Shown here piece after piece: positions 33,601 through 55,700 of a stretch of DNA of 64,000 nucleotides (position 1 is its first letter; each line of letters begins with the position of its first letter). Position numbers and translations under genes: made by a program. The stretch is taken from contig CP154954.1 of NCBI GenBank assembly GCA_039621445.1, positions 6,583,425 through 6,647,424 of the forward strand, in the 5' to 3' direction. The stretch comes from Euglena gracilis. Taxonomy: Eukaryota. Below the pieces are notes generated by a model, which did not search any database, was not told the origin of the DNA, and saw nothing but the letters and a program-made list of their open reading frames with translations.

Positions 33601-35583
33601 AAGCTGATGGTTTTGATGGCATTTCAGAAAATTGTGGTGACAAGGTGCAACCGGCAAAGTAAGTATGCGAGGTGTTTTTTTCTCTGTTAAAGGTGTGATT
33701 CCTGCATTAGGTTCATTGCACACAAGTGGATGGGATCTAACAGTGCCACCATCAAACAATGTTGCTTGAGGTATCAAGTTGGAATAGGTGAGGGGAAGTT
33801 GTTTGTGAAAAGCATCCACGCCAAGAGGCTTGAAGAGAAAAGCACCAGTTTTGGTGTTGCCACCCACCATTGTGGTTAACATGTCATGTGCCAACCACTC
33901 TCATGAAGCGTCCCAAGAACCCCCAGCAAAAAAGACCAAAGTGGACAAGAGCCTCTCTGGCAAGAAAAAAGAAGCCTATTCCCAAAACCTTGCGTTTGCA
34001 TATTGCAACAAAAAGCTCTTTGACCTCTTTAATCCAGGGTTCGATATAAGGAGGGCGTACATGGTTTAGGTGGGGGGGTGTCCCCCTCCCCCCTCCTGAC
34101 CCGCGGGGGGGTCCGCCCCCCCCCCCCCCCTCACCTGCCAGGGGGGTCCGGACCGACCCGGGGGGGGGGGGTACCCAGGACCCCCCAAAAGGGCAATTTT
34201 TTCCTCCGGCGGAGTTTTTGGTAATTTTTTTTGTTGCAACAGCCAAATGTTTTCTTTCGGCTCCTGCACTGCACGTTTATTTGCTTGTTCTTTTGCAGCC
34301 GATGTCTCGCCAGCTTCCTTTGTTTATGTGCTGCTTGCGCTTTGATTTCGCTGGATGTCAAACTTTTGGCCCGGCGCTTTGCGCCGGGCTGAAAATCGGT
34401 CACCCGGACTGCGCCACTGTTTAGGTGGGGGGGTGTCCCCCTCCCCCCTGGCCCGCAGGGGGGGGGGGTCCGGACCACCCCCCACCTGTCCTTATATCGA
34501 ACCCTGCTTTAATCCCTGAGCACCCATTCCAAAGGACCTCCTTGGATGCGTTAGCTTGTCACGACTGCTTGCATGTTGACTGAATGATCAAAATGCATTG
34601 TTGGTATGAAAGAGTTTTAAGGCAGCTTTACCCCCCACCTATATGGCCGAAAATGGCCGAAAATGGCCGAAAATGGCAAAAATCTGGGGGTCAACTATAG
34701 GTGCTTGCCCCTGCCTAAAGGGGGTTTTTTACCCTTTAAGAGTGGGTCCCCCCCCCCCTGTGTGCCCCTGGGTGTGGATGGGTTGGCCCTCCCCCGGTTG
34801 TGCTGTGCCGGACACAGGGATCGCGCTGGATCCTCCGAGGATGAATTCTTTGCCGGGCCTCAAAGGGCACGCGGTCCTCCGCTGTTGTGGTACATCTTCC
34901 CGGGATGATTAGCGTTGCTTCGGCCGGCAGCCAAGGGACGTCATCGCCCGCCACCCCGTCGTCCGCAACCCGGCCTGAACGTCCTGACCCCCCTACAGAT
35001 CTTCAGCCAAACCGCGGGTTGGGAACGTGTTTCTAGGTATCGCTTAGGAGACGTTTCCCAAACCTTGAACCAGGGAATGGAATGGTGTGGTGCTCCTTTG
35101 GTACCCCCCCCCCCCGCCGGCTTTGTTGCATTTATTAAAAGGGCGTCTCAACATCGCCCCAGAAACCACCATTTTCCACCCCCATCCCATGGTTGCGGTG
35201 GACCATCTGTTTGTCCCGCCTGACTCTTCTTGCCCCTGAGCTTTGGTCTTTGAATGGACCCCGATGAATGCCTTTTTTTTTGGCATGTTTATTTTTGTGT
35301 TTTTTTTTTTCCCCAATTTTTAGCAAAAACCCCGTATTTTTGCGTTTTTTTTTATGGACTCCCCCCCCCTGGTGGGAGAGTCCACCGTCTCCCCCACCAG
35401 GTCTTCCCATGCACTCCGTCTTGGGGCCAACAGCATGCAGCCTGGCGGGACGGGCATGCCCCGGGCCGGGCGGTGCCCCCCGAGGAGCGGGAGTACCGGC
35501 TCGGGACGGAGGACGGGCTGCAGCGGCTGTTCGCCGGCCACACCGCCGCCGGTGTGACCCTCGCCACCGCCCTGGCCTTCTGA
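4556..35583 (+). CDS. RAB3GAP1: Rab3 GTPase-activating protein catalytic subunit, multi-exon. Approximate exons: 4556-4636, 8126-8204, 9269-9390, ~10275-10420, ~10560-10723, 12125-12260, 12643-12770, 13378-13485, 13912-13953, ~14990-15067, ~15515-15575, ~17258-17410, 20821-20940, ~21690-21785, ~22765-22915, 23344-23396, 23949-24009, 26473-26630, 27620-27746, 28362-28533, 28897-28978, 29995-30079, 30421-30581, 31635-~31745, ~32205-32320, 34818-~34870, ~35433-35583
   Basis: Exon translations give Rab3GAP1 motifs in the expected order: FEIADFSTVTAWERL; TWGTTADPIEQLRCELRWP; LWRRFAEAVRLFWE..GPPDWSSCLLHQ|KLQMVNACI; LFIP|ATQQPLPVTEDM..LGTS..LQ|SDMQAFKAANP..DFVRWYSPKDF; LSARMQEPGNVWQVLWEE; EREYRL..QRLF..LATALAF-stop. 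The first exon/start codon and some internal exons are tentative. Confidence 0.9.
7330..7880 (-). pseudogene. Possible decayed non-LTR retrotransposon reverse transcriptase fragment
   Basis: Minus strand gives a frameshifted AF-DSVSH (cf. KAFDSVSH) and a downstream GVKQ; no YADD motif seen. Confidence 0.3.
12261..12642 (+). other. Nonconventional intron
   Basis: T|ACC-GCTGTTTACGGGGAGAGG ... CCTCTCCCCGAACAGC-AGCTT|G; long stem; in frame. Confidence 0.7.
16555..17205. repeat. AT-rich low-complexity ATATT/ACATATT repeat
   Basis: Visible directly. Confidence 0.9.
17585..20577. mobile_element. 3-kb non-autonomous DNA transposon with ~70-bp TIRs and 5-bp TSD
   Basis: TIR CTTAGGCGGCC(T/G)AATTCGCACTTAA...TTGCGCAAATTTACGATTTTTTTG at both ends; ATGCT at 17580-17584 and 20578-20582; internal arrays of TGATGCGCGCATTTGCGCAAAT (~18260-18780, ~19740-20180). 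Confidence 0.85.
23397..23948 (+). other. Nonconventional intron, ATG...CAT stem
   Basis: T|GCC-ATGGCTGCCATGAG ... CCCAAGGCAGCCAT-CCCCC|A; in frame. Confidence 0.65.
24830..26445. repeat. Degenerate CA/CT/CG low-complexity tract
   Basis: Irregular CAC/CTCA/CGCA runs, possibly poorly polished sequence. Confidence 0.85.
26631..27619 (+). other. Nonconventional intron, GAG...CTC stem
   Basis: C|GCC-GAGGGG ... CCTCTC-CTGTC|G; joins LFIP|ATQ, position constrained by Rab3GAP1 homology (LYIPVTQ). Confidence 0.75.
28362..28533 (+). CDS. RAB3GAP1: Rab3GAP1 catalytic-domain exon
   Basis: SDMQAFKAANPFDPCLVDFVRWYSPKDF matches the family signature SDMxxFKAANP..DFVRWxSP; preceded by a pyrimidine tract and CAG. 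Confidence 0.93.
28979..29994 (+). other. Nonconventional intron, CTG...CAG stem
   Basis: C|GGC-CTGACCCCC ... GGGGGTCAG-CGGCC|A; required because an in-frame TGA follows the exon; joins ALP|VSEQRQGFD. Confidence 0.8.
29104..29365. mobile_element. hAT-type MITE
   Basis: Ends CAGGGTTTTTTTTTAG / CTTAAAAAAAAGCCCCTG; perfect 8-bp TSD TTCTCCAT. Confidence 0.9.
33078..33357. repeat. 18-bp minisatellite (GGACAAGATGCAGATGCT-like), ~15 copies
   Basis: Direct tandem repeat visible in the sequence. Confidence 0.9.
34035..34506. mobile_element. hAT-type MITE
   Basis: 18-bp perfect TIR CAGGGTTCGATATAAGGA; perfect 8-bp TSD CTTTAATC (34027-34034, 34507-34514). Confidence 0.92.
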
Positions 35584-36964
35584 CCTCCCCTGCCCTCTCA
35601 CTGACCAGTGCGGTCCGCCGGCTTCCGCTTGCCACTGCAGCGCCGCGTGCCATCCAAGAGCTGTGGGCTGCCCTCCCCCCACAGTCTATTGGCGGATGGA
35701 GCGTGGCAGGGCAGGGGACTGCGCGAGCATCAGTGCGGTGTACAGTGTAGCCGTGGCGAGACACGGGGAGGGTGTTGGGCAGGCATTTGGGCCGGTACAC
35801 GCCAAGCCACGGCCTGAGCATGGCCATGCCCATGCTCTGTCTATCTAGATATCTCTACCTATCTAGCCATGTCCATGGTGTCGGGGGGGGGGGAGGCGAA
35901 TGGCAGTAATTGCCTCCTGTTTGCCAATCCTGTGTTCCGGCCAACACAGCCTCCTGCCCTGCGACAGGTGCGCCGTTGGCACAAATCCTCTGCGACCCAA
36001 TCACGCTGGCTCCAGTGGGCACCCGCAAGGGTTCACGTGCTCAATTGTGTTCTTGGTTTGCGAGAATTTAGGGCTCTCATAATTCATTGCTGCCTGAAGT
36101 GCGGAGTTGAACATGGGTGCCATATTCTTCAACCGTTGCTGGGGAGTCTGCCATTGCCAGTAATATGTTTTGTGTGGAAAAAATTCCCCCGACGGATGAA
36201 ATGTCCTCAGGTGCACTCCACTGTGTCTCCCAAACCATGAAAAAAGCAAACAATGGCCTTTGAATAATCTGCACAGCTAACTGCAGAATAAGGAAGACTA
36301 CAGAATCCAGGAAAGTCTGGATTTCAGTGTGTCAAATCCTGCCCCACTTACAACTCCCTCATTGTTACAGAGTGCGGCTTGGTGTTCGACCCTGATGGGG
36401 TTTTATCGAGAAGATTCAATGCTCCTCTGGAATTTCGACATTTTTGACCACAAAATAGGTCAAAAATGGGCGAAAATGGGTTGGAAAAGGGCTGAGAAGT
36501 AATTGTCAGTTTTTTTGGACATTTTTGCAGTTTCGATTCTTTTTGGTACCTGGTTCGACCCCGGACCCCGGACCCCTGGGGGGGGGTGGAGGGGGGTCAG
36601 CCAGATTTTCCAGCCTCTGAGCTGGACCCCCTGGAAGGGGGGGGGTCGATAAAAAGTGCCCTAGTGGGGAGCGGCTTTCTGTGAGTGGCGTTCATAAGTG
36701 GAAGTGTTTGTGCAGTACATCTGAGTTGGTCAAAAAAGTGTCTCAGTTGTTGCACCACATACCCGAGGCAATGGACAAGACACTTGCATATGCACCTGCG
36801 GGGTTTACAAGACGCAAATCCATAACGAGCAACCTAGTTTCGGGAGAGTTGCCGGAGCGATTTGGGGCAGGTGAGACCGAGCGCTGGACGATACCATTGA
36901 CTTCGACTTAAAATGTTGGTTGCACAATCGCGCAAAGGGACTATTCGCTCAAATGCGCATACGG

Positions 36965-37258
36965 CAGGCTTCTTTTTTCCAACCTGGGGGAGAGGGGGGG
37001 ACGCCATGGGGCATGCCCACAGCAGGAACCCCCCACCCCAGGAGATCGGCTTTGGGTCCCGGTGCTTACCAACTTTCCAATTTTCCCTTGAAAATGACCA
37101 TTTTCAGGCCCCGCGCCGGGGGGCGCGCCGGGGGGGGGGGGTCAATAACAGAAACACCCCAAAAACCTGACCCCTCCGGGGGGTCGAAAGTGTCCTGCCC
37201 CCCCTACCTGCCCATAGCATCCACCCCCTGGGGGTGAACTTCCTTTAAAAGGAGCCTG
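36965..37258. mobile_element. hAT-type MITE
   Basis: Left CAGGCTTCTTTT, right reverse complement CAGGCTCCTTTT; decayed TSD GCATACGG/GCACAGGA; a related end in inverse orientation starts at 48260. Confidence 0.6.
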
Positions 37259-37611
37259 GCACAGGACTACTTGCACAACAGTGGGAACAAAGTGGAGGTT
37301 TTCCACGATTGCGCCAGTGATTCCTTTGCGCATTCAGCTGATGGATTTGCTGCAATTATGTGAATACTTGCACACGATGAATCATTAAAAGTTAAACGTG
37401 ACAAAAGACCCATTTCCTGGGCCCCATATGGGCTGCGGCAATTGAGTCTGTGAAAAACCGTTGCATTACCTCTGACTCTCTCCTGTTCCCTATTCTAATT
37501 TAAAAAACACGGCAATTCAAGATTTTGTTCCTGAAAAAAAAAAGAGTTGAAAAGTGTCCTCCAGTCCCAGCAGGCGCAGTACTCACTCCCCCACCCCTGC
37601 CTGCCACCCGC

Positions 37612-37647
37612 CCACCCCTCCACACACACACACACACACACACGCAG
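37612..37647 (+). promoter_or_regulatory. Putative spliced-leader trans-splice (or 5'UTR intron) acceptor
   Basis: C/CA-rich tract ending in CAG 26 nt before the ATG at 37674; inference from euglenozoan biology. Confidence 0.4.
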
Positions 37648-37673
37648 GCACCCCTCCCCCTCCCCCGGGCGCC

Positions 37674-39800
37674 ATGCCGAAGTACGCCCCGGACTTCTGG
37701 CGCAACAACTACCTCGACATGTCCTCCGCCGGCGGGGGCGACGCGGTGTGGCAGACGATGGGCGCCACCGCGAAGCCCGCCGCGGAGGGCCAGGCCGCGG
37801 GCAGCAGTGCCTACGACACGTGTGCAGGGTGGGGCCAGTCGGAATGTGCGAGTGTCCCTTTTTTGGCACGCAACCCAGCCGACCTTTCCCACTTTCGTTT
37901 CGACAGGATGGAATCCCGCATAAACCTGAATTTTTGTCACCCTTGTGACCACCCTTCGGAAGGAACATGCAGGTCATGTTGGTAAGTACAATTGTTCCAG
38001 GGCAGTTTCTCATTGAGGACAGTTACCCCAGGTGGGGGGAGGTGGGGGGAGGATAATTGAAATGGGTTGTCATAGAATTTGAGGACAGTTGGGGATGGAT
38101 GTTCAGAAAAAGGGGACGGTGCAACGCATTTTGAAGTCCGATTTTTAAACAAGCTGCAACCCGACCAGGGTTTGATATAAGGAGGGTGTTCGGGGTTTAG
38201 GCGGGCCCTCCTGGACCAGAGGGGGGCGTCCGGACCCCCCACCTGCCAAGAGGGGTCTGGACCCACCGGGGGGGGGTAACCGGGACCCCCCCCCCCCAAA
38301 GGTCAACTTTTCCTTCCGGCGCTTCTGCAACCCGACCAGGGTTTGATACAAGGAGGGTGTTCGGGGTTTAGGCGGGCCCTCCTGGACCGGAGGGGGGCGT
38401 TCGGACCCCCCACCTGCCAAGAGGGGTCTGGACCCACCGGGGGGGGGGGGTAACCGGGACCCCTCCCCAAAGGTCAACTTTTCCTTCCGGCGCTTTGCGC
38501 CTTTTTTTTTTGCATTTTTTGACAAATTTTTGCCCAAAAATTGCCCAAAATGGCACTTTTGGCCGTTTTTGGTGGGCCAGACCGAAAATTTTTGGTGCTG
38601 GGCCAAAAATCAGCGACTCCCAGACCGTGCCACTGTTTAGGTGGGGGGGGGGTGTCCCCCACCTGCCCTTTTATCAAACCTGAACCCAACCTGATGATTT
38701 ATGTTTGATTACCGCCAATTTAACATCATTTGCTTTGTGCCACTGATCCACTAGATGATTCATGGACTCGTTGGTGGGTGACGTTGTGTGTGGAAATGTT
38801 TTTGAAGTGTGTCTGGGCAAAGATGACGGGAAACAAAGATGACGGGAAACAAAGATGGCCATCCAGTATTTCTCGTCATTTCTTCCCATCTTTTCTTCCT
38901 GTCTTTTTTTCCCATCAGTTTTTTTCCGTCAGTTTTTTTCTGTCAGTTTCTCCCGTCTTTTTCCTTGCCGTTTTTTTTTTCATGGGTTTTCCAGTCCTTT
39001 TTTTCTGTCAATTTTTCCCGTCATTTTCCCCGTCATTTTTTCCTGTCATTTTTGTCCCCCCTCCCCAGCCTGGGGTCCCTCCGCCCTGGCACCACAAGGG
39101 GCTGCTCAGCCTGGCGAAGACACACGCCGCGGCGGCGGGGCTAGGGGTTTTCTAAAGCTGGAGGGGACCCTACCCCCCCAGGAGCCAGCACCTTTTTTCC
39201 AGCCAGCACCTCCCAGCCCCCCCCCCCCCCCAGGGGGTCCGCTGACAGAAAGTTCAGGCCAGCCGGTGAAGAAGCCAGAATGGCAAACATTCTTGAAAAA
39301 TGAAAAATGGTGGGAAATGGCGTTTTTGGGTGGGTTTGGGGGTTTTCCCTCCAAAAATGCAAACCCAGCTGGCTTTCGGCTTTTTTTTTGGCTTTTTTTT
39401 GGGATACCTGCCGGGTCCAGCTTCCAGCTGGCTGGACCCCCCCACTGGACCCCCACCCCCAGGGGGGGTCCAGCCAACTCCTTCTTCCAGCTGGCCCATG
39501 GGACCCCCCCCCCCCCAGGTCCTTAAGATAACCCCTGGGCGGGGCAGGTGGCGGCTACGAAGGGGACGTGCAAGCGCTGCGGCGCCACAGGCCACCTCAC
39601 GTTCCAGTGCCGCGGTGAGGCCGGCGCCCGGATAGACTGGCCGCTGGTGTTTGCTTTGTATTTCCAATTAACATTCCAAGCCCTAAAGTCACTTCCTCTG
39701 CAAGTTTGCTTCTTCTTCTTCTTCTTCTTCTTCTTCTCTTCTTCTTCTTCTTCTTCTTCTTCTTCTTCTTCTTCTTCTTCTTCTTCTTCTTCTTCTTCTT

Positions 39801-39831
<31 letters not shown>

Positions 39832-42800
39832 TCGTTGTTGCTGTTGTTATGATTCTGATTCTGATTCTGATTCTGATTCTGATTCTGATTCTGATTCTGA
39901 TTCTGATTCTGATTCTGATTCTGATTCTGATTCTGATTCTGATTCTGATTCTGATTCTGATTCTGATTATGATTACAATTATGATAATGATTATGATTAT
40001 GATTACGATCATGATCACGATCACGATCGCGATCGCAATACGATCACAATTTCAATTACAATAACAATTACAATTGCAATTATTATTGTTGGTGTTGTTC
40101 TTGTTCTTGTTATTATTATTGTATATATTGTTTTTACTATTATATTATTATTACATATTTCATTATTACTCACTCAATTTATCATTTTCAATTTTTTTTC
40201 AAAATATAAATTAAAAAAAATTCATAATGATTTCATGCGTTACTTATACTCATTCACGCACAATTATGAAATCACAGGTCTCCACCTGTGATGCTTTTGC
40301 GCCCCTCCCAGCTCTACCGCCTATGGCCCGACGCTTCAAGGGGTGGCGCCTACGCAACGGGCGGGGAAGAGGTGGGGGACGCCTGGACTACCCGCCACGG
40401 CTAACGCGGGAGGGCTGGGGGGGAGTCGGGTGAGGGGAGGCCCTAGGGGCCAACCTTTTAGAAACAGGGGGGGGGGGTGGCCACGCATCGCTGTCTCGCC
40501 TGGTGGGGTGGACGGGGGGTCGTCGGCCGTCCAATCGGCTTGCACCAGGGCCCCGGTTTCCGATACCGCGGGGGAGGGCGTTACGGGCCTGGGACAGGGA
40601 GGCAGGGTTCGGGCGGCCGGACGCCAGGCGGTGCCACTCTCGGTTCGGGGACGTGGGGCGCGGGCGGATCCCCGGGGTCCGCTTCCCCCCTTTCCTGGCG
40701 GGGCACGTGGCGTCTGCCGGAAGGGCGGGTGCAAGAGGCAGGTGGAGGTCCGGCCACGGCCTCTCCTTCCCTGCCAAGGGGAGCATGAGGGCCGCTGCGG
40801 TGGGTCTTTCCGATAGGGGGTATTCCCCCTTCCTCCTTCCTCTCTGGGTTGCAGTTGGTTCTGCCTTTCTTCACCCTCGGTGTCTGATCGGATTCTGTCG
40901 CTCGCTCTCTCCCATCTTCTCTCACTGTCGTCCCTGCACGGACCGGGTGCGGGGGGATTCTCTCTTCTTCTGGAGCACTCTCCTGGCGGGGGGATCTGAG
41001 CTTCTAGCAGCCCTTCTGCCTTCTTTCTGATGGGGAGTTGCTCCCAGGTGTTGGGGAACCTAGGGCTGAGCAGGGATGGGGATGATCCTACGGTCGGGGG
41101 GGTTCTGATCATCCTTCAGGGAGCGGTCCGCCTCTGAACAGGACTGCGCGGGGGGGGATTACAATCATGCGCACGGGCCGCCCAGCGGCGGGCGGGTGGG
41201 TGGCGGGGTGGTGGTGGGGGGTTACGGCCTGGCTGTTCTGTGTTCTGTTATTTTGTTTGTTTTGGCCCTTTACTTTTAATTTTATTACATGGAAAAATTA
41301 TGGGCTGTTTATTTTTCTTTTGATTTAGTTGTTTTTTTTTTCTTGCTCTGTGATGCTTGCAGGTTATTTAAGCTCAGTTCTTCATGGCGCCTCGCCCCGC
41401 AGAGAAGGCAAGACGCTGTGACTTCTTCCCACCCCAGGCCGTTTCAGCCGCCACTTTGGGGCTATGGGTCCCGGCTGGGAAAACCCAATGCGTGGCGGGT
41501 GGGTCGACCCCCCCCCCCCATCCTGGTGGGTGGGTGGATGGGTGGGCAGGGCCAGTCCCCCACCACCCCTTCCTGTGACCCGGGGTTTCTAGGCCACAAA
41601 TGCGGATTCCGTGCCCGGCGCCATCGAGGGGTCGACCGTCCCACCCCCACCCGGCCTTCCCGTACCGCCCGGGTGGTCCCCGGCGGCGGCCTCCCCCCAA
41701 CCACATGCGGCCGTCGGGGCCGGACCGGGCTGCGGAGTCGTCGGGGAAGGCGATGCCGGAGCGGTGGGAGATGCCCAGCAGCACCAGCAGCGTCTCGAGC
41801 GAGGAGGAGAAGGCCCCCGACGCGGCCCAGGCCCCCCCTTTCCGCCGCACGTCCCACGCAGCGTGTAGCTTAAGAAAATTTGCCCCCCCCCCCCTCCGGG
41901 GCGGGGTCTGGCTAGCCAGCAGCCTTTTTCCAGCCTGCCCCCCCCCCTCAATGACATTATTTTATCTTTCCAGCCGCCCTTTGGGCAGCTGGACAGTAAC
42001 GGGTTTTCGTTTTTGGGGGTACAAAAATGGTCCAAAAATGGGGCGAAAATGGGTCAGATTTGGCCTGGCCAGGAAATATTTGGGGTCAAAAAATTGATTT
42101 TTTTTTTTTGCATAAGTGGCAGTTTTTTTGAACGTTTTTGCACTCTCGATTTTTTGGGACCCAGTTCGGCCCCAGGTCGGGTCCAGCTCCAGCCCGGGGG
42201 GGGAGGGAGGTCAGCCAGCAGCCTTTTTCCAGCCAGCCCAAATTTTCCAGCCTCTGAGCTGACCCCCCTCCCCCCGGGGGGGGGGGTTGAAGTTAGCGCC
42301 GGCCATAAACAGACAAGAAGCCTTAGTGCAACTAAGGGGGGGGGGTTGTTAAAAAAACGCCCTGGTCCCACGGTGTCACCGACGCAGAAGGGTTTTAACA
42401 GGTCGGTGCCCCCCTGGACGGCTGGGACGGCTGGGAATTTTGAGTTTAGTTTGGATAGATAATGTTCTATTGATGCCGAAAATCATTTTTCTTCCCCGAG
42501 TTGGGCTGTTTTTTGTTGGCTGGAACTTTGGCGTTTTGTTTTTTGCTCTTTCGGAGTAAATTCTGCTGGTCCGAATTTTTTAAGGTATTTGAAGGCATTT
42601 TGGGGCATTTTAAGGGTTTTTAAGGTGGCTTAAAATGTCATAATGCCTGCGGCGGTCGGCCTGACCACCTACGTCCAACATGGTCGCTGGAGGGGGGCCT
42701 GTGTTCTTGACAGTGATGTTGAGGAGAAGGCCAAACCCCCCGATTGGGTGGCTGCCAGCACCGCGAGCAGCAACGATCTGTGAATTTATTTAAAAACTTT

Positions 42801-45749
42801 TGCTTCGTTTCCTTTGCAGAACACTGCGCAGATTATGCCGACACATGGACACGATTGAGACGTCAAGGCAGGGGGGGGGATGGGGGCGTGGGTGGGTCCG
42901 CCCCCAGGGGGGGTGGAGTCAGGGAGGTGGAAAATATGTACTATACATTTTTTCCAGTTTTTTTTTGCAGTTTTCACGTTTTGGGTTTTTTGCAGTTTTT
43001 TGCAGTTTTTTTGCAACTTTTTTTTGTTCCAGTTTTGAGGAAACCTAAGATGTTTATTTTTTGGTGCTTGTTGTTTTGGCGACAAAGCCACAATTACTCC
43101 CCAACCAAAATTGCTCCCTCTCCAACCTTTGCATTGTAGGAGGTTTGAACAATGTTGAAGGTTGTGAGGGCAGTCGTCAAAGGAGTGCGCAAATTACAAC
43201 AGGTAACCGACATCTTCGTTCCACCCCAATACCTGATGCATATTTTTTTGCGCATGACCTTGCTCTGACCCCGTCTGATGCAGTTGTTGAGTCTGCATTC
43301 AGTCGGCTGAGGATGATTTTGGCAGATCGTCGGTTACGTTGGAGTTCTGACGTTGTTGAGCAGCGCAACAGTTCAGTGCTCGGCGTGCATGCTTCAGGCT
43401 CAAGCGAGCCGACAAAGGCACAAAGCGACGTGCGAAGGGTATGTCTAAAGGAAAAGGCAGACTCAACGTCGATGTGTCAGATGAAGGTTGCTTGCGAGTA
43501 CATTTCGTTCAACAGTAACCTCCACTTCCCCGTCCTCCTCCTCCTTCTTATCTTCATCGTCTGACCTCTCCTCTGATTAAAAGAACCCGATAAAGCATGT
43601 TGCGATGATGTTTTCTTTGCATTGCCATGCCATTCCAATGCTCATCCCATGTCACACCACTCAATGGACCGAAAGTTCCAAATTGAACATCCCCTGCAAG
43701 AATTGAAAGCATCGAATATTTCTGTGTATGGGTTTATGTGCAGTTTTTCCATATTTAGAGAGGAAACCATTTGGCATCATTGTGGGCATGATGGTCGGTG
43801 TGACCCGGCATCCAAACACATGACTTGCATTTCAGTGTATGAAATACCGTATACAGTGTACCTTGATGGACTGCTTCCATTTTTGTCTTCATCAGCTCCA
43901 AAGCTGTGCAAAAAAGTTAGGTCAATTGGGGCGTGCTCATGTGGTCACAATTTACGTTGTTTTGCATATGCACACCATTTCAGCTTGTTTATTGTCTTTT
44001 TTTTGTTGAAGTGCAGTTTTTTGCAGTTTTTGCAGTTTTTTTTTGCAGGTTTTTTTTGCAGTTTTTTGCAGTGCAGTTTTTGACTGGCCCATGCGCAGTT
44101 TCTCCCCCCCCCCTGGTGGAGTTCTGGCCGAGTGGTAGCCCGCTGGAGGGGGGGGTTTCGAAGCGCAAAAACTTTTTGACCCCAAAATTGACCCCCAAAA
44201 GTGGGTCCCTCCAAGCCCTCCCCCGGGTACCCCCAGGGGTGGTGGGTGGGTGGGTGGGTGGGTGGGTGCGGACCACTTTTAATGGAAACAATGCTGTCAA
44301 GGGACAGCGGCTGGAGTGCTGCGGAGCCGCTGCAAGAGTTTCGAGAAACCAGATGTGGGGTACCGCGCCGTGCCAGCACCGTCCAAACGCCATCCTCCCC
44401 CTCATTGCCGGGTGTGTTTGCCCTCTGCCCCGGAGGGTCAACCTCCGCCACGAAACAGTGGGCCAACGCCGCGGAACGCCGGCTTGGCAGGGGCCCGCCC
44501 TCGACGGGCTCCGAGGCCGCGGGGGGGCCCAGTTCCAGCGCGACGAGCAGTACTACGCCCCCCGCCCAGGGCTGCCTGTGTGGAGAGAGAGGCCGAGGAG
44601 GAGGAGGACGGGGTGGCCTCCCCGCCCCCATAGCGGGAGGGAGGAGGCGGAATCGCACGTTTGGATTTCCGGTGGGTGGCGGTGGAGGGGGGTCCCATCT
44701 GGTGGTGGGGTTGGGGGGGGTCACCCACTGCTTCCCAGTTTTACGGTGGCGCCGAAGGAATCGCCCCTTGCAAAGTCCCATTTGGTAGCCTGTCCATCCA
44801 TCTTTCTATGAATCTATGCCACACACCCAGCACAGCACCACACAAGGAAAACGTTGACCTAAAAGTCGGCACCCCCAGAAATTTGGGAAGGCCTCGTTGG
44901 GGGTGGGGGACCCCATCCCTCCAAGGCCCGGGAAAAGCCCCCCCCCCCGGGTCAGTAAGTGAATCTATGGTGTGGGAGTCGACCCCCACCCCACTAGGCC
45001 TTCTCGTACAACGGGTCAGGATAAGCGGCGGAATAGTTTTTTTTTAACCAGCCCCCCCCTGGCCAACATGCAGCCGTGCCCCTGCCGCCCGCCCTCGCCC
45101 CCGCCGCCCCGGGCGGCGGTCCCCGACGACGCGGACGGCACGGAGGTGGTGTTCATCCCGGAGCCCCTGAAGCGGCCAGGGCGGTGGGGTGGGGACCGGG
45201 GCCCGGTCTGCTGCCTCAGACGCCCCAGACGCATTGGGCCCCTGAGGCGCCCCGGGACGCCCGAGGCTCCACTGGCGGCAAGGATGAGGGTTGCAGATGT
45301 CTTGTATATTTTGATATTTAGTATTTTATTAGTTTTAGTATAGATATTTAGTGTTTTATGTTATTATGTCTTATATTTTGGTATATTTTGATATTTCTCA
45401 TGGGAATGTTCATTATTGCCTCAATAAAAACACTACAATGAAGTTCAACTTTTGTATGAACTGAAGTTTAAAGAAATGGCAACTGCGAAAAATGTGGGTT
45501 TGAATTTTTTTTTGGTGTCAAATTATCAAGCCAAGGGGGTGAAGGTTTTCTATCACACGAGAGGTTCTCTCAGACCCTGAACTTGCCATCTTGGTCTGTC
45601 ACCAATTGTCACCAACCCTTTGGTGACAATTTGCAGAAGAGTATCCATGTCAACTGCAATAGGCCTGGCTTTGAGTATACACTACACACACACGCGCACG
45701 CGCGCGCACGCACGCACGCATGCGCGCACGCACACACACATTTGCACAT

Positions 45750-45780
<31 letters not shown>

Positions 45781-48502
45781 TGCACGCACGCACGCACGCA
45801 TGCATGCACGCACACATGCACGCACGCACGCACGCACGCCCGCTCACATGCACACACACACCCACACCCACACACCCACACCCACATTTGTATCTTGGAC
45901 ATTTAATAGATCCAGATTATCGAACCAAGATTTTGCACCACACATCAGATATTTTTTTTGTATTTTAGTGTACATTTTTCACTATCTGAAAAAAAAAGCA
46001 CCAGAAAGTACGGGTAAAAGTCGATCCACCGGTGCACCTGTGAAAGGCTGAAAAGCCTCGCCTTGCCCCACTAGAACCCACCTTTCTGAGGCTGACGACG
46101 GAGCAGCAGCAGCAGCTCAGATGATGGGAGCAGTGAGAGCGAGCAGAGGCGTTCTCAACCCCAGAACATACAATCACTTAGTCACTGGCCGACTTCTCCC
46201 CCCGGGGAGGGTGGATGAGTGATTTTTCAGAGTGACTGACTGGTTATTGGTCCAGACCCCCTACCTCCCGGGTGGGGGGGGGATCAGGAAAATGCCACTA
46301 AAGTGACCCGGCACCAAAGGTGCTGAAAAGTTTTGCCTTTTTTTTTTTTAAGTCTTGTCAATGGACAGGAGATAAATCCATCGCATTTGGTCCAAGATCA
46401 TTGCAGAACAAAAATAGTGCCGGTGACCTGCAGGTTGCAACCTGCAATGTCCAGCGGTGTCAATCATGCGCGATTTGAGTCAGCTGCCGAAAATTCTGTT
46501 TCCTGAGGGAAGAACCCAATGCCCAATTGGGTTGTTCTTTTTTGTAGTCTGGTGCTTCTGCAGATTTTTTTTGCTTTTTTTTTTTTGCTTTTTCTCCCCG
46601 TCATAATGGGTTTTGCTGTTCAAAAAAGGTTGATGCCTTCTCATCCATCATTGAGCTTTAAATTTTCATTTGTAAACCTGGTAAATATTTTCAATGGAAA
46701 GCCAGATTGTTGTGTATTTAGGATTATTGGCCGTCCTTTATTGCATTTTTTTTTGCTTCAATGCCTAAAACTCGGCAACCCATTGGATTTGCAGTTGCAT
46801 ATTCTGGATGGACCCAGGCTTCTTTGCAGGCAAGGGATTTTCTTTGTAGCTGCCCCTGCCCACCAAAATATACACAGCCTTGTTCATATGTTGTGCGCAT
46901 TCCAGCTGAAGGTGTGCTTTGATTCGGGGTGTACCGTTTTTTTCTTAACCGACCACCTTTCCACTCCTCCAGAAACCAGTCAGTCACTCCCCCCCGAAAG
47001 CCAATTAGTCACCCCCTGGAGGGGGGTCGGACACTCTGGAATCCTAGGGAAATTTGACCACAAACGTAGTGCCTTGTGCCGACGTGCAACAGTGCGATGT
47101 CCCCCGCCACTCTTGTTGCCAAGGCCAAGCCATCATCTCAGAACAGGCCACTGCTCAGGGTTCGCAGTACCCGGGGGGCTGGACTGAAGCTAGTCCAAAT
47201 CTGGCCAGCGGAAATCCTAGCGGCGGGGGGTCTGTCAGCAGGGCCAGTTAGTGGGAATTTTTTTTCTGGACCCCCAAACTTGCCAGAAATGCCCATTTTT
47301 GGCCATTTTGGAACAAAACCGCTCAAAAAATGCATCCAATACCTCATTTTCACCTCGACGCGCACGCCAAGGAAATTTTCTTCCAGTTGGAGGGGACCCA
47401 GACCCCCCCCCCCCCCCGAGGCAGGGGGTTTAGCAGTGGCTTTTTTCCAGTGTCCAGCAAATTGGCTGGCCAGTGGAACAACCCCCCCGTGGGGGGGGGT
47501 CCTTAAGCAATGGCCTGTCCCGGAAACTCTATGGGTGGCTGCTTGAAGCGTCGCCCCCCCCCCCCCCCCACCACGCCTTCCCTACATGGAATTGGGCGAT
47601 GCAAGGATGACCACCTGGGGTCCACGCACTCGGCGCACAGCCACCGCCCCCCCCGCCCGGGCGGCCCTGCCAGCAGCGGCGCAGCGCGCCGCAAGAAGGC
47701 GGACAAGGCCAAGAAGCGCCGCCGCAGCTCCGGTTCCAGCTCCAGCTCTGCATCCAAGCAGGCCACTGCTGACCCTCCCCCCCCCCCCCCCCCCCCTTGG
47801 GCCCCGGGTTGTTTAAGGCAACGTGGCCCCCCCCGGTTGGCCCCCCTCGCAGGGTTGAATGCGACTTCTGGAAACTCTATATATGGTCTCTATGGTGGGC
47901 AGGTTTCTCAATAAGGGTTGCTGAACCTCCAGGGGGGGGGGGGGGCTTGACTGCAGCTAGTGCAAACAATGGCCAGTGGAGAATCCAGTGGACCCCCCCC
48001 CCCCCACAGGAGGGGGGGTCTGCTGAGCAGCACTAGCTAGCAGAAGGTGGGTGCTTTTTTTTTTTAATGATGGTCGCACGGTTGTTATGGGTAGGCCGGG
48101 TGGGGAAGGTACGTTCGACTGTTGTGGGAGCTTGTCGGGGTTGGGATGGGTGATGCACAATTCTGGGTGTCGAAGACAATGGGGGTGTGACAATAATCGC
48201 TATCATGGAGAATTCTCCCGCTGACCTGAACGAAGTGAAAGTTTTTTTTGGACCCTCAACAGGCTTCTTTTAAGGGAATTCACACCCCCTGCGGGGGTGG
48301 GTGCTTTGGGCAGGGGGTAGGGCAAAGCCTGCCAATAATGCTCGTTTTTTTTGGCTTTTTTGGGTTTTCTGAAACAAAATAAATATATAATATATAAACC
48401 TCTCAGAAACTCATTAAAACCTGACTTCCAATGTGCCCCCCCCCCCCACCAATTGGGGGACCCCCGGACACCCCCCCCCCCTAACTGAAAAGCAGCAACG
48501 AG

Positions 48503-48589
<87 letters not shown>

Positions 48590-48799
48590 CGCGCGCGCGC
48601 GTGCGTGTGTGTGCGTGCGTGCGCGCGCGCGCGTGTGTGTATGTGTGTGTGCACGCGCGTGCCCTGCAGTGGCGAATGGACCGAGTCCAGCAGCTCCTCC
48701 AGCAGTGGCGACCGCAAGCGGCGGGCGAAGAAGAAGCGCCGCAAGGAGAAGAAGAAGGCCAAGAAGTCCAAGGAGAAGAAGAAGCGGAAGAAGCGCTGA
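37674..48799 (+). CDS. CXIP4: CAX-interacting protein 4-like zinc-knuckle protein with Ser/Lys/Arg-rich tail. Exons approx. 37674-37821, 39094-39138, 39543-39618, 41728-41812, 44533-44563, 45084-45173, 46094-46148, 47641-47755, ~48671-48799
   Basis: Spliced model reads MPKYAPDFW..VWQTMG..AYDTYKGLLSLAK..KGTCKRCGATGHLTFQCR..SSSS..KKKRRKEKKKAKKSKEKKKRKKR-stop, resembling plant CXIP4 (AY..FQGLLALAR..CKKCG..GHLTFQCR). Confidence 0.75.
37822..39093 (+). other. Intermediate intron (GT 5' end, nonconventional 3' end)
   Basis: T|GTG-CAGGGTGGGG ... CTCCGCCCTG-GCACC|A; restores AYDTYKGLL. Confidence 0.8.
38166..38682. mobile_element. hAT-type MITE (same family as 34035) with tandem duplication of its left ~171 bp
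   Basis: Left CAGGGTTTGATATAAGG, right reverse complement CAGGTTTGATAAAAGG; TSD AACCCGAC/AACCCAAC; second left end at 38337. Confidence 0.85.
39139..39542 (+). other. Nonconventional intron that is a hAT-type MITE (element 39142-39537)
   Basis: Left TIR TAGGGGTTTTCTAAAG, reverse complement of right end CAGGGGTTATCTTAAG; perfect 8-bp direct repeat GGCGGGGC at 39134-39141 and 39538-39545; 3+5 excision keeps the frame (AAAG|QVAATKGTCKRC). Confidence 0.85.
39619..41727 (+). other. Probable nonconventional intron (CGG...CCG stem)
   Basis: GA|GGC-CGGCGCCCG ... CGGGGCCG-GACCG|G; in frame QCRGE|AAESSGK. A GT donor at 39615 is an alternative. Confidence 0.5.
39709..39968. repeat. (CTT)n followed by (GATTCT)n microsatellites
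   Basis: Visible directly. Confidence 0.95.
41859..42364. mobile_element. hAT-type MITE, CCAGC-rich family
   Basis: CAGCGTGT... / ...ACGCCCTG ends; perfect 8-bp TSD GTCCCACG; internal AGCCAGCAGCCTTTTTCCAGCC repeats. Confidence 0.85.
42920..44115 (+). mobile_element. Degenerate hAT element carrying a transposase remnant
   Basis: CAGGGAGG.../...CCCCCCTG ends flanked by GTGGAGT direct repeats; TTTTGCAG subterminal arrays; contains a hAT dimerisation-domain-like peptide. Confidence 0.6.
43232..43363 (+). pseudogene. hAT transposase C-terminal dimerisation domain fragment
   Basis: PDAYFFAHDLALTPSDAVVESAFSRLRMILADRRLRWSSDVVEQ fits the Dimer_Tnp_hAT pattern P..A...L..P.S....E..FS.L..I....R.R.S...E. 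Confidence 0.75.
44564..45083 (+). other. Nonconventional intron with near-perfect 8-bp TSD
   Basis: Stem CAGGGCTGCCTGT vs ACATGCAGCCGTG; flanks CCCCCGCC / CCCCTGCC (7/8); C|G and T|G junctions; in frame YYAPR|RPPSP. Confidence 0.7.
45174..46093 (+). other. Nonconventional intron
   Basis: C|GGC-CAGGGCGGTGGG ... CCCACCTTTCTG-AGGCT|G; in frame PLKR|RRSSSS. Confidence 0.7.
47144..47517. mobile_element. hAT-type MITE, CCAGC-rich family
   Basis: Left CAGGCCACTGCTCAGG, right reverse complement CAGGCCATTGCTTAAG; TSD TCTCAGAA/TCCCGGAA (6/8). Confidence 0.75.
48508..48660. repeat. (TG)n/(CG)n microsatellite
   Basis: Visible directly. Confidence 0.95.
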
Positions 48800-49520: not shown

Positions 49521-49635
<115 letters not shown>

Positions 49636-52728: not shown

Positions 52729-55700
52729 ACGTGTCTGCTCGAGCAGGTCAAGCTGCACTCACGCCTGTGTTCACTGGAACCCGCCCATTTGCCCTCCTCC
52801 CCACCACACTCACGCCCCCACCCCCCCCCACACCCGCTCCCTGCCCCGCCCCCCCCCGCTCCCCGCCCGCCCGCCCCCCCCCCCCCCCCGCCCCCGCCGC
52901 GCCCCCCGCCGCCGCGCCCCGCCCGCCCTCGCCCCCCCCCGCCCCCCGCGCCCCTCCCCTCCCCCTCCCCCCCCGGCCCGGCCCGTCCCTCTCCTCCTCC
53001 CCCCCTCCTCGTCGGCCCGGCGGCCTCGTGTGTGTGCTGGCCGGCTCCTTGGTTTGGAAGTCATTGATCTAGTCGTCTCTCAATTGGCCCAAGGTTTACA
53101 GCTGGAAAACATTTGAACCATTTTTCTGTGTCTTGCAAAAAAGTTCGAGAACATTCAAATGGGTGTCCCAGTCCTATTCACAGGTAGTGCAGGTGGATTT
53201 CGCCACAATTACCCATACCTGAAGCCTACCCCGTTCCCGCCCCCAGCCATAATAATAATGACTCCTGTCCAGATTGATGGCGGTCCGTCTTATCTGTATT
53301 GCGTTGAAGCAGGGTTTTTGAACGGTGGTTCATCCAGTGCAGCCTGGCTCCGATGCGGCTCCCGCGGCGCAGCTCTTTGCCATCCGTCCCCAGCTGGTGC
53401 CCTACGCCGTGGCAGTGGTGTGCGCGCGCCATGCGATGTGTTGCGAACAGGGGTTTTTTTTAGTCGTGGACCCCCGGGGGGGGGGGGGGGGGGGAGGGGG
53501 GGTGGGTCCGGCCGCGCCCCCCCCCGGGGGGGGGTGTCCCCCCGGAGGGGGGTAGGATATACTTTTCGGCGCCAAAGGCGCCGAAAAGTGCCATTTTAGA
53601 ACTTTTCGCGATTTTCGGCCATTTTTTTGTGGGTCCCCCAGGACGCTCCCTCCCTGGGGGGGGCCCCCCAGGGGGTGGGTGGGTGGGGGGGACCCCCCCT
53701 CCCCCCGTCTTAAAAAAAAACCCCGGGTTGCGAATGGGTGGGTGGGTGGTGGGTGCCGCTGCATCGCCCTTGATCCAAGGCAGGCGTTTCAATCTCTGTT
53801 GATTCTGTGAGAAGGAATAGACCTGGTGTTGTCGGAGCGCCCTCCCCCCCCCCCCCCACCATTTGCCCATCAGGTGAAAGCTGCAGACCCAGCGGACGCG
53901 GTCCGAGCAGGGCTCTGTTTTTGAGTGTGGCACAATTATTGACCTCCGGAGGCCACAGCGGGTCCGAGGTGGGACCCTGCTTGTGCCCAAAGGAGGGTCA
54001 CCTTTCCTCAACAACCCATGTTCGGATCGTCGCTTTCCTTTGTCAATCAAAGGGTGAAGTTTATGTCAAAAATGGGCATAAGAAATGTTTTTTTTTTCTG
54101 AAGGAATTGCCTGCTTTTGTTTTGTTACCGGTATTCATTTCTGTTCGTTTTCTTTGCTTTTGAACCTGCTTAGAGATTGAGAAGCAGTAAGCAAAGTGCC
54201 CTTTCAGCAATTTTCCTCTCCATATCGCCATCCACCCCAGAATTGTATCCTCCCTGTGAAAGTTGTGATTGTATTGTGGCTTCTGTTCCTTTGTTTCCAT
54301 TTTCATTACATTGCTTTCTCCAGGATGTCCCCTCTATTTGAAGAAGAACATTACCACATGGCTGGTTTTCTTTACAAGTCCCGCTTCTGAAAATTGAACT
54401 TTTTTGCATTTTTCGTTTGAACGTAAATTTCAAATTCGATATTTTTGTTGAAATTTGATACATATTGTTTTGTTTTATTACTTTTTGTTATCACATATTT
54501 TTACATTTTACAATATATATGTATATATAAATATTTTTAAACAAAACCGACGTTCCTGGCTCTCCTGCTTCCTCTGGTGTGCGTGTTGCGGTAAACACAG
54601 CCCCCTGCCCCCGCCTCCTGCCGGCGTGCCTGCTGCTGCTGCCCCGGCCCCCGCCCGCCGGCTCCCCCGCCACGGACGCCGACGCCGCCGCCGCGCCGCT
54701 GCTGGCGGGCGTCGCCGCGGCGCTGCAGCACACGAAGGGGCCGGCGGACTGGGCGGTGTGGCGGCGGGTGGCGGCGCCCCCGGGGCCGTGGGCGGCCGTC
54801 ACGGCGGCGCAGTACGCGGCGGCGCTGCTGCCCGGCATGGCGCAGGTGTGTGGGCCGCGGTCTGGGGGCCCGGGGCCGCGCCGCGCGTCCCGGCCGATTG
54901 CGGTTAGTCGCACGGACACACACCCCCCGCCCCAAATTCGTCCCGTACCGGCTGAAAGAGGCCTCCCAGGGAGTTTGTCATCCGAACTCTGGCGGGGCTT
55001 GGGGGGGGGGGGGGGTAGCGTTGCCGGTCGGCCCACCTCCAGCTGCGGCGCGGCCAATTTCCTTTCCCAGATTTCTCACCCGCCCATATGCGTTCGAGAA
55101 CAGAAGTTTGACACGGGGCACATCACCCGGCACAAGCCCTCGCCCCCCCCCCCCCGCCGCCCCCCCCCTCCCCGCCCAGGCACTGCGCAAGGGCTCGCAC
55201 GGCACCATCCCCGCGGTGGCCGCCGTGCTGCAAGCCCTGCCCCCCGCCCTGCTGAGCCTCCCGCCCTGGCCTTCGCTGGAGGCGGGTGGGCAATGGGCCC
55301 CACTTGGGCCAGGCTGAAGGACCCCCTGTGGAGGAAGGGCCTTCGACCTTGACCAGCTGGTAAGGAAGTTTTTATGGGTAAAATGACAGGAACAAAGAAT
55401 TGGAAAATGGGGCTGAAAATGCGGGAATAAAAATGATAAACGACAGATAGTAATTAAAAATAATACCAAAAAATAGGAGCAAAGTGCATGAGAACTATGC
55501 GTAAAAACAATGTAATCAAAGTGTGTAAAAAATAATACAATGTAATAAGATCAGACAAAAAGTGCGGGAAAAAACCTTGGGTGGCTTCTTCTAGCAAGCA
55601 GCCACCAACGATGGAAACGCTGCCAGACGATCCCCCGCCCAGTGCTGACCCCGCGAAGGCCTTCCCCCGACGAAGGAGCTCGCCCGGCCCCTGGCGCTGG

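Follow-up and report, generated by a model that had tools for sequence, protein, structure and literature searches.

The SREK1IP1-like gene and its second intron

The window (i.e., the whole 64-kb stretch of Euglena gracilis DNA that was analyzed) carries a SREK1IP1-like CCHC zinc-knuckle gene of 10 exons, whose start codon lies at 37674 (Table 1). Exon 1 matched eukprot:EG_transcript_22677, which is labeled Euglena gracilis, at 100%, and exon 3 matched the Pfam domain zf-CCHC_3 (E = 7.7e-6). The exons were placed with the transcript protein P0006, and their junctions are known at protein resolution; several of them slide by 1 to 8 nt, and the joint between exons 8 and 9 requires one mismatch. 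All nine introns have non-GT-AG borders. An exon of the Rab3GAP family is also present in the window, which gave no matches in Rfam or tRNA scans.

Table 1. Coordinates of the gene, its introns, and the miniature elements (MITEs) in the window
Feature	Coordinates	Strand	Remarks
SREK1IP1-like CCHC zinc-knuckle gene, 10 exons	37674..48799	+	Mapping of P0006 (272 aa, PF13917)
Exons 1-5	37674-37821, 39094-39138, 39543-39613, 41699-41824, 42709-42741	+	
Exons 6-10	44503-44563, 45084-45173, 46094-46135, 47670-47755, 48683-48799	+	
Nonconventional intron 2, 404 nt	39139..39542	+	3-nt/5-nt spacer register; P0006 mapping
E4, 396-nt MITE, body of intron 2	39142..39537	+	Unbiased scan: 8-nt flank repeats plus inverted ends
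E4 left target-site duplication	39134..39141	+	GGCGGGGC; 8/8 identical to 39538-39545
E4 right target-site duplication	39538..39545	+	GGCGGGGC
E4 left terminal inverted repeat	39142..39157	+	TAGGGGTTTTCTAAAG; 13/16 ungapped vs. reverse complement of 39522-39537
E4 right terminal inverted repeat	39522..39537	+	Reverse complement, CAGGGGTTATCTTAAG
25-nt internal word in E4	39183..39207	+	Shared with other elements
Copy of the word within E5	42213..42237	+	23/25 vs. E4 word; second copy at 41914-41938
Intron 9	47756..48682	+	Starts with AAG, then CAGGCCACTGCT (E6 left end after 3-nt spacer)
E1, MITE	29104..29365	+	Perfect duplication TTCTCCAT; ends closest to those of E4
E2, MITE	34035..34506	+	16/16 inverted ends; perfect duplication CTTTAATC
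E3, MITE nested in intron 1	38166..38682	+	Flank repeat 7/8; internal 171-nt tandem duplication; related to E2
E5, 506-nt MITE nested in intron 4	41859..42364	+	Target duplication GTCCCACG, 8/8
E6, 374-nt MITE nested in intron 8	47144..47517	+	Ends 13/16; flank repeat 6/8
E7, sister of E1	53448..53726	+	71% over 252 nt; perfect duplication GTTGCGAA; 3' end CGG, not CTG
E8, decayed relative of E5 inner part	36383..36663	+	Limits approximate; ~1 kb upstream of start codon; without 25-nt word

At intron 2, P0006 reads AAAAGQVAAT, and its mapping with 0 mismatches requires the removal of exactly 404 nt. Since the protein joins AAAAG-Q-VAAT, the missing piece is exactly the element E4 plus one of the two duplications that flank it, and the site emptied in this way is in frame (GGG CAG GTG). 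The direct repeats make the junction slidable over 9 equivalent registers (39134-39537 to 39142-39545), none of which has GT-AG or GC-AG borders. The euglenid splicing code, as given in the text of PMC12501133, consists of a 3-nt spacer, C-D-G...C-H-G, a 5- to 6-nt spacer, a purine, and paired ends. In register 39139-39542, intron 2 starts with GGC followed by TAG (+4 to +6), which departs from C-D-G, and ends with CTG (-8 to -6), which conforms to C-H-G, followed by the 5-nt spacer GGCGG; the downstream exon opens with a purine (G at 39543). The ends can pair in a terminal RNA duplex of -22.9 kcal/mol (shuffles, -11.8 +/- 3.0; 0 of 200 shuffles were as good), although they are unpaired in the minimum-energy structure of the whole intron, whose fold is no better than that of shuffles (z = -0.73). 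Intron 2 is a euglenid nonconventional intron and not a spliceosomal introner. Introns of this euglenid class leave the RNA as circles.

Two raw RNA runs labeled Euglena gracilis were used for read depth. In run X21 (both directions summed), depth was 7.5 to 21 in the exon bins (10.8 and 11.2 in those of exons 2 and 3), 0.65 at the unique center of intron 2 (39286-39396), and 0 across 222 bases at the start of intron 1 (37843-38064). Among the joints listed (15 of 468), all of which come from DNA contigs, there was no junction read for intron 2.

The original prediction had likened the intron to introner elements. A GT at 39147, inside E4, and an AG at 39546-39547, just past the duplication, would allow the spliceosome an in-frame, phase 0 cut of 401 nt that leaves one extra codon (G-L-G-V), and codon-adding introners are known from the text of PMC9860276. 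However, P0006 reads G-Q-V without an extra residue; because only 404-nt removals fit the protein, the 39147-39547 cut is ruled out, and none of the other introns of the gene is GT-AG. We therefore regard a spliceosomal introner as highly improbable here.

Anatomy of E4 and of the other elements

The scan that delimited E4 returned 3 strict matches in the window, E4 among them, and none in the reversed control; 40 block shuffles gave 0 perfect-repeat matches. Identity of a random 8-nt pair at the spacing of the E4 flanks has a chance probability of about 1e-4. E4 is a complete MITE that interrupts the coding sequence of the zinc-knuckle gene. A 137-aa ORF runs through it, and a protein search with this ORF for ORFs on other copies found no match.

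CAG...CTG-type ends together with 8-nt flank repeats also characterize six other elements of the window (the repeats match at 8/8 in four of them, at 7/8 in one, and at 6/8 in one), and all six are sited in non-exonic DNA or nested within other introns. With E4 included, all 7 elements thus have duplications of 8 nt, and the termini follow the consensus CAGGG.TTT.TTTAAGGA (CAGGGnTTT over 15 termini). The limits that had been predicted for the MITEs at 41859-42364 and 47144-47517 stood, with flanking 8-nt repeats of 8/8 and 6/8; their description as free copies did not, as both are nested within the zinc-knuckle gene, in its introns 4 and 8. Three pairs (i.e., E5/E8, E1/E7, and E2/E3) are genuine full-length pairs within the window. 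The elements have a G+C content of 0.54 to 0.68 and are rich in G/C homopolymers, which inflate every pairwise score between them. Mononucleotide-shuffle controls, which destroy the homopolymers, are too lenient, and such contrasts were set aside for the pairwise element scores.

Flank repeats were also scored in the 3+5 register at the other introns of the gene. Those of introns 5 and 6 reach 6/8 and 7/8, against a background of 72 non-cognate pairs in which 3 reach 6 or more and 0 reach 7, while those of introns 1, 3, 4, 7, 8, and 9 are not above this background.

Elements of the hAT superfamily produce 8-bp duplications, preferably with T at position 2 and A at position 7 of the target, and have short terminal inverted repeats starting with C/T-A-G/A-N-G. 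Duplications of 8 bp are also made by the superfamilies P, Merlin, Zisupton, and Novosib. E4, with its 8/8 duplication and its termini TAGGG and CAGGG, fits the hAT rule, and it resembles hAT-superfamily MITEs (e.g., Ds-derived ones) in duplication length and in its short C/T-A-G inverted ends. However, those MITEs are AT-rich, whereas the window elements are G/C-homopolymer-rich, and no transposase partner was found for them in the window. Since no transposase domain or family was found in the 125 ORFs of the window, membership in hAT is proposed from duplication length and end motif only. The missing transposase would suit a MITE of another 8-bp-duplicating superfamily, named above or unknown, and so would the duplications, which follow the target preference of hAT only loosely (among 7 left flanks, T at position 2 and A at position 7 are each found in 4). 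The CAGGG/TAGGG ends and the uniform duplication length nevertheless favor hAT, and we consider a different superfamily rather unlikely.

Sequences shared with E4 in the window and in the genome

Introners form many near-identical copies, most of which are introns. Within the 64-kb window, E4 has no full-length homologue and no long match outside short shared stretches. One of these stretches is the 25-nt internal word, which recurs at ~42213 and ~41914 as had been predicted, and also at 63090-63114, a fourth copy that was absent from the first reading; a degenerate 22-mer had 4 matches in the window (0.00 expected from 100 shuffles). The anticipated resemblance between the right ends of E4 (39518-39537) and E6 (47498-47517) was likewise found, with 15 of 20 bases in agreement. 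An exact 9-mer, CTTAAGGAC, is confined in the window to E4 and E6, where it reads on the minus strand at a distance of 10 nt from the end of either element; with one mismatch allowed, it has 4 matches, which is not above chance. A further relative had been reported at ~36540-36663. This sequence is indeed a relative, but of E5 and not of the intron: 36500-36632 matches 42113-42269 (67% over 160 nt; E = 7e-9), and the inner part of E5 is homologous to 36400-36660.

The original prediction had gone on to propose one family that exists both as a whole intron and as a passive insertion. Elements with like ends and 8-nt duplications do lie passively elsewhere, but the four copies do not form a single sequence family: E4 shares only the 25-nt word with E5 and about 15 to 20 terminal bases with E6. 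Since E4 lacks a full-length relative within the window, the term "one family" is too strong; what these elements make up is one terminal-motif, hAT-like group. A family with both roles is seen more cleanly in E6, a passive MITE: its left end (12/12) opens intron 9 after the 3-nt spacer, and this intron holds a 47-nt block that is 83% like E6.

Assembled DNA runs extend these comparisons to the genome. The 36-nt stretch 39183-39218 was found in other flanks of DNA-run contigs (loose ends, 345/234 in X1 and 350/227 in X3). DNA contigs have joints from 36538 to 39183 and from 39207 to 36605; other genomic relatives therefore carry the 25-nt word at that point. A contig join between 39211 and 39424 similarly indicates shorter relatives that carry both arms. 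Summed contig depth was 4.1k to 343k in the E4 bins and about 130 to 180 in unique bins (i.e., ~30 to 2000 times the single-copy level over parts of E4), where summed contig depth does not equal copy number. These data suggest that there are many partial copies of E4 elsewhere in the genome. A metagenome scan with the 22-nt word gave three loci, none with BLAST likeness to the window; they were rejected as relatives, being chance matches in other organisms.

The high repetition of the E4 arms in the DNA runs also argues against an origin without a transposon. In that scenario, the 8-nt repeat would be a product of double-strand-break repair, or a coincidence in a GC-rich, (GCG)n-like exon, and the elements would look alike through low-complexity convergence. 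In line with this, GGCGGGGC sits in a GCG-rich exon, the pairwise scores are inflated as described above, and the text of PMC4770533 invokes break repair to account for the 8-nt repeat in the gapC intron of Euglena agilis. Against it, four more elements have perfect, mutually unrelated 8-nt repeats in non-coding, AT-richer flanks together with CAGGG...CCCTG-type ends, and an 8/8 repeat is rare by chance and did not arise in the controls. We find such an origin very unlikely.

Proposed origin and removal of intron 2

On balance, we think it probable that a MITE inserted into the SREK1IP1-like coding sequence, that it is removed by the nonconventional-intron pathway, and that it belongs to a large MITE population. 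In this model, a non-autonomous DNA transposon, most likely of the hAT kind, would have entered the gene between the codons GGG and CAG, with duplication of an 8-bp target (GGCGGGGC). E4 would then be taken out of the pre-mRNA by the euglenid pathway instead of GT-AG splicing: its inverted ends would pair, and the RNA would be cut 3 nt ahead of the 5' [C/T]AG and 5 nt past the 3' CTG. The removed piece would comprise the element and exactly 8 nt (i.e., one duplication length), and the mRNA would therefore be identical to that of the uninserted gene. U-G wobble could preserve the pairing despite TAG in place of CAG. E4 would be one member of a heterogeneous population with common termini, 8-bp duplications, and shuffled internal words, the other members of which appear to be passive in non-exonic DNA or within other introns. 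The data directly show the anatomy of E4, the lack of exactly 404 nt in a transcript, and the terminal layout that the elements have in common; we infer that an insertion took place, that E4 belongs to hAT, and that it is removed from transcripts of this particular allele.

Removal from this allele is where an insertion polymorphism would differ. The transcript could come from an allele, haplotype, or strain that lacks E4, while the filled allele stays unspliced or is mis-spliced or degraded. P0006 differs from the window exons in at least 3 of 272 residues and therefore derives from another allele, strain, or paralogue, possibly one without the insertion. According to the text of PMC12501133, C is needed in the 5' motif, and defects followed each of the single-base changes tried in CAG or CTG; a 5' TAG, as in E4, was scored as defective in that assay. 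In addition, an X3 contig stops exactly at 39141, the last base before E4, as at a branch point (the X1 contig reaches 39168). However, DNA contigs cross into E4 (X1, 38634-39168 and 39500-39700; X3, 39506-39700), and the right-hand X3 contig is unbroken at 39538, where an empty allele would require a break. No empty-site joint was present among the joints listed (15 of 468), and intron 2 has the right spacing, pairing, and purine in a gene whose introns are all nonconventional. Polymorphism is thus an unlikely explanation, and removal of the inserted MITE from RNA is the reading that we prefer.

The MITE-origin hypothesis for euglenid nonconventional introns was put forward in 2014 (Milanowski et al., PMC3935182, the text of which also cites the de novo Ds intron of maize), and the text of the 2025 study states that their origins "remain unclear" (PMC12501133). 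Transposon-origin introns in Euglena have thus already been hypothesized, and E4 is a clean, concrete example. As described in the texts of PMC3935182, PMC4770533, and PMC12501133, these introns, like intron 2, have no GT-AG borders, a 3-nt 5' spacer, CTG at -8 to -6 with a 5-nt spacer, paired ends, a junction that direct repeats make slidable, and a next exon that starts with a purine. Intron 2 differs from those published there in its 5' TAG instead of CAG, in its full 8/8 repeat at the ends of a recognizable MITE, and in the presence of nearby non-exonic elements with the same layout. A precedent is the gapC intron of E. agilis, which is new, strain-specific, and nonconventional and carries direct repeats of 8 nt (PMC4770533, 2016); beyond it, we found no link between Euglena introns, hAT, and 8-bp duplication in the texts covered. 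Introners of Micromonas, Aureococcus, Symbiodinium, and Polarella, as described in the texts of PMC9860276 and bioRxiv 10.1101/2020.10.14.339549, resemble E4 in being introns made by a non-autonomous DNA transposon that has inverted ends and duplicates its target, and those of Aureococcus and Polarella include classes with 8-nt duplications. In introners, however, the spliceosome uses GT/GC/GA-AG sites from the element or the duplication, whereas E4 has none in any register, and the piece removed with E4, unlike that in introners, is the element plus one duplication.

A broader reading is conceivable, although we hold it only tentatively and would not bet on it: the Euglena code (3 nt before CAG and 5 nt after CTG) may be the RNA image of the transposition of one MITE superfamily, with CAG...CTG as the transposon termini and 3+5 as the 8-bp duplication. 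On this reading, the majority of nonconventional introns would trace back to old insertions of that superfamily with decayed duplications, and the excision machinery may recognize the paired ends that the transposase recognizes or even descend from the transposase. With its own termini and duplication length built into the code, any transcribed copy would be excised scarlessly by the pathway.

At this one locus, the limits of an intron, the limits of a transposon, and an intact 8-nt target duplication coincide, which provides a worked example, and look-alike elements nearby plainly do not interrupt exons. The locus turns the MITE-origin hypothesis into genome-wide tests (e.g., for a peak of sliding distances at 8 nt among introns, of which the slidable ones were set aside in the 2025 study, for families common to intron and non-intron copies, and for an autonomous transposase). 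It bears on both the origin and the removal machinery of euglenid nonconventional introns and, if the proposed origin is true, would explain the tolerance of exon insertions in the Euglena lineage.

Probable nonconventional removal of the E4 intron

Exon 1 (37674 to 37820) of the gene hosting element E4 matches the 272-aa transcript protein P0006 (eukprot:EG_transcript_22677, which carries PF13917) at 100%, and exon 3 has a match to Pfam zf-CCHC_3 (E = 7.7e-6), which identifies the gene (37674 to 48799) as SREK1IP1-like zinc-knuckle. Intron limits were derived by mapping P0006 onto the window. Across the E4 site, the protein reads ...THAAAAGQVAATKGTCKRCG..., which fits only the removal of 404 nt (nine equivalent registers, 0 mismatches). 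None of the nine registers starts with GT or ends with AG. Use of the GT-AG pair 39147/39547 would excise 401 nt and leave G-L-G-V, a reading absent from the transcript; E4 is thus not the spliceosomal introner that the original prediction had implied. GT-AG is missing in all nine introns of the gene, in every transcript-allowed register.

The register 39139 to 39542 reads GGC/TAG...CTG/GGCGG, followed by G. In the available text of PMC12501133, the Euglena nonconventional code consists of a 3-nt spacer, C-D-G...C-H-G, a 5- to 6-nt spacer, a purine as the first base of the next exon, and pairing inside the motifs; CAG is placed at +4 to +6 and CTG at -8 to -6 (PMC3935182 and PMC11282704, available text). 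The E4 intron fits all features of this published euglenid layout except for its 5' motif, TAG. Single CAG changes were damaging in a 2025 assay (PMC12501133, available text), which favors the main rival explanation (i.e., that the transcript on record derives from an allele without the insertion), but the layout of E4 is right and all introns of the gene are of the same nonconventional type. The 25-nt ends of E4 form a predicted duplex of -22.9 kcal/mol (shuffles, -11.8 +/- 3.0; 0 of 200 as good), while the fold of the whole intron is uninformative (z = -0.73 versus shuffles). The point we draw from exact removal is that the pathway takes out the CAG...CTG unit together with 8 nt (3 + 5), exactly the length of one target duplication, so that insertions flanked by 8-bp duplications leave no scar.

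Anatomy and possible origin of E4

Three segments of the window emerged from a scan that required (C/T)AG...CT(G/A) ends, paired termini, and 8-nt flank repeats, namely E1, E2, and the intron E4; the reversed sequence gave 0 matches, and 40 block shuffles gave 0 perfect-repeat matches. The two termini of the 396-nt E4 are TAGGGGTTTTCTAAAG and, reverse-complemented, CAGGGGTTATCTTAAG (13/16 alike), and GGCGGGGC flanks it on both sides (39134 to 39141 and 39538 to 39545). Without E4 and one repeat copy, the site reads GGG CAG GTG, in frame. Seven window elements (E1 to E7) combine 8-nt flank repeats with termini of the CAG...CTG type; at comparable distances, two random 8-nt segments are identical with a frequency of about 1e-4. 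The consensus of 15 aligned termini is CAGGGnTTTnTTTAAGGA, which E4 fits at both ends.

Elements, introns, and depth bins in the window. X21 is a raw RNA run (depth summed over both directions); contig depth is summed over DNA contigs and does not equal copy number. In the 3+5 register, intron limits are set 3 nt before the 5' CAG-type motif and 5 nt after the 3' CTG-type motif.
Feature	Position	Flank repeat	Depth	Other
E1	29104-29365	8/8
E2	34035-34506	8/8		ends 16/16
E3	38166-38682	7/8
E4 (intron)	39142-39537	8/8
E5	41859-42364	8/8
E6	47144-47517	6/8
E7	53448-53726	8/8		3' end CGG
Intron 5	42742-44502	6/8		CCCCCGAT / CCCTCGAC; 3+5 register
Intron 6	44564-45083	7/8		CCCCCGCC / CCCCTGCC; 3+5 register
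Exon 1	bins 37621-37731 and 37732-37842		X21, 7.5 and 21.1
Intron 1, first 222 bases	37843-38064		X21, 0
Exon 2	bin 39064-39174		X21, 10.8
E4 bin	39175-39285		contigs, 310k-343k
E4 centre bin	39286-39396		X21, 0.65; contigs, 4.1k-4.6k	unique centre
E4 bin	39397-39507		contigs, about 62k
Exon 3	bin 39508-39618		X21, 11.2

The simplest reading is that a hAT-like MITE would have inserted into an exon of the zinc-knuckle gene and that the insertion would have been tolerated through exact removal by the nonconventional pathway. E4 is putatively assigned to hAT by its 8-bp duplication and its C/T-A-G-G-G ends, features that we take to follow the hAT rules; no transposase domain was found in the 125 ORFs of the window.

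Introns 5 and 6 of the gene retain flank repeats and therefore resemble earlier insertions of this type, judging from their sequences; among 72 noncognate flank pairs, 3 reached at least 6 matches and 0 reached 7. Intron 6 has the ends CAGGGCTGCC... and ...GCAGCCGTG. Intron 9 starts AAG/CAGGCCACTGCT, where the sequence after AAG is identical to the left end of E6 (12/12), and includes a 47-nt block 83% like E6. Introns 1 and 7 keep the exact layout of 3 nt, CAG...CTG, and 5 nt, with no repeat left, and intron 3 has GAG...CTC at the CAG/CTG positions, both sides being changed and the pairing kept; its start, GGTGAG, resembles a conventional donor. Long intron microsatellites ((CTT)41, (TGATTC)26, CA/CG-type, and (TGCC)n arrays) occur at 39709 to 40082, 45701 to 45865, 48510 to 48660, and 49520 to 49640.

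Copies, reads, and the filled site

The window (G+C content, ~52%) contains many short elements in which runs of G and C abound. As originally predicted, the 25-nt intron word at 39183 matches E5 at 42213 (23/25) and recurs at 41914; an additional copy, missed earlier, lies at 63090, and a degenerate 22-mer has 4 window matches (0.00 expected). The proposed resemblance of the intron's right end to that of E6 also holds (15/20), and no exact copy of the 9-mer CTTAAGGAC occurs in the window outside these two ends. Beyond these short pieces, E4 has no long matches elsewhere in the 64 kb. The copies hence do not form the single family proposed: the sequence families are E1/E7, E2/E3, and E5/E8, and E4 stands alone. 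E8, the suggested relative at ~36540 to 36663, is kin of the inner part of E5 (67%, 160 nt) but not of the intron, and it is without the 25-nt word; it lies ~1 kb upstream of the start codon.

Two of the supposedly free copies, E5 and E6, are nested in introns 4 and 8 of the zinc-knuckle gene, and E3 is nested in its intron 1; all three are thus passengers rather than free intergenic copies. Within E3, a 171-nt unit is present twice in tandem (38154 to 38495; 94% alike). E5 holds the 25-nt word twice, and only its inner and right parts are homologous to the 36.5-kb element; from its sequence, it looks composite, or like one element nested in another. The surroundings of E1, E2, and E7 are not coding-like. 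Two ORFs carry Rab3-GTPase_cat pieces (27540 to 27905, E = 4.6e-6; 27966 to 28613, E = 8.3e-12), so a gene for the Rab3GAP catalytic subunit is predicted here on the + strand; E1 lies just downstream of these ORFs, probably within an intron of that gene.

We placed reads of RNA runs X21 and X24 (same species label) and DNA contig sets X1 and X3 on positions 36400 to 39700 at >=80% likeness. The X21 depth profile agrees with E4 removal. Among the joints listed (15 of 468), all were contig joints and none was an RNA junction. Summed contig depth, which is not copy number, was ~80 to 270 in unique bins of the DNA runs and far greater over E4 (see the table). Hundreds of contigs match 39183 to 39218 alone and then enter other sequence (X1 loose ends, 345 and 234); these and the contig joints are signs of relatives elsewhere in the genome. 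The joints 36538 to 39183 and 39207 to 36605 indicate that members of the 36.5-kb family usually have the 25-nt word, like E5, and the joint 39211 to 39424 (three contigs in each DNA run) represents shorter relatives with both intron arms. The most repeated piece of the examined region is the E3 stretch 38509 to 38619 (ttgcccaaaaattgcccaaaatggcac...; summed depth, again not copy number, ~1.0 to 1.1 million versus ~130 to 180 for unique DNA), where RNA reads from other copies pile up.

P0006 differs from the window at at least 3 of 272 residues, as a transcript from an allele without the insertion might; in exons 47670 to 47755 and 48683 to 48799, it has G for A (exon 8/9 join), KKGRR for KKRRR, and KKRRRK for KKKRRK. 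Another database protein, P0005 (91 aa), corresponds to a read-through from exon 1 to intron 1 and carries an indel compared with the window. These differences indicate allelic or strain variation. However, both edges of the filled site were found in X1 and X3, and the right-hand X3 contig is unbroken at 39538. One X3 contig stops exactly at 39141, the last base before E4, and an X1 contig extends 27 nt into E4; the X3 end could be a branch point (an empty allele or a variant) or just a repeat-induced break.

Relation to known introns

Transposon-made introns are well documented, many transposon orders making them (PMC12130899), and spliceosomal introner classes with 8-nt duplications are described in Aureococcus and Polarella (PMC9860276, 10.1101/2020.10.14.339549). 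For euglenid introns, the proposal of a MITE-like origin dates from 2014 (PMC3935182) and recurs in a 2024 review that mentions TSD-like repeats (PMC11282704); in 2025, the origins of the nonconventional introns were said to "remain unclear" (PMC12501133). In E. agilis gapC, a strain-specific new intron was reported to have 8-nt direct repeats, which were interpreted as a trace of break repair (PMC4770533). In the E. gracilis assembly paper, the repeat share is given as 58.8%, with one third of the repeats unclassified and MITEs unmentioned; for this and the preceding papers, we refer to the available text. Our literature search, which covered text rather than figures and supplements, found no paper in which the 3+5 spacers are linked with hAT, with non-intron copies, or with a duplication of 8 bp.

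The idea of a mobile element serving as a whole intron, with passive relatives elsewhere, therefore survives in spirit, though not in detail. The E4 intron is a clean new example of an already suspected kind, useful in that the suspected transposon origin becomes testable.
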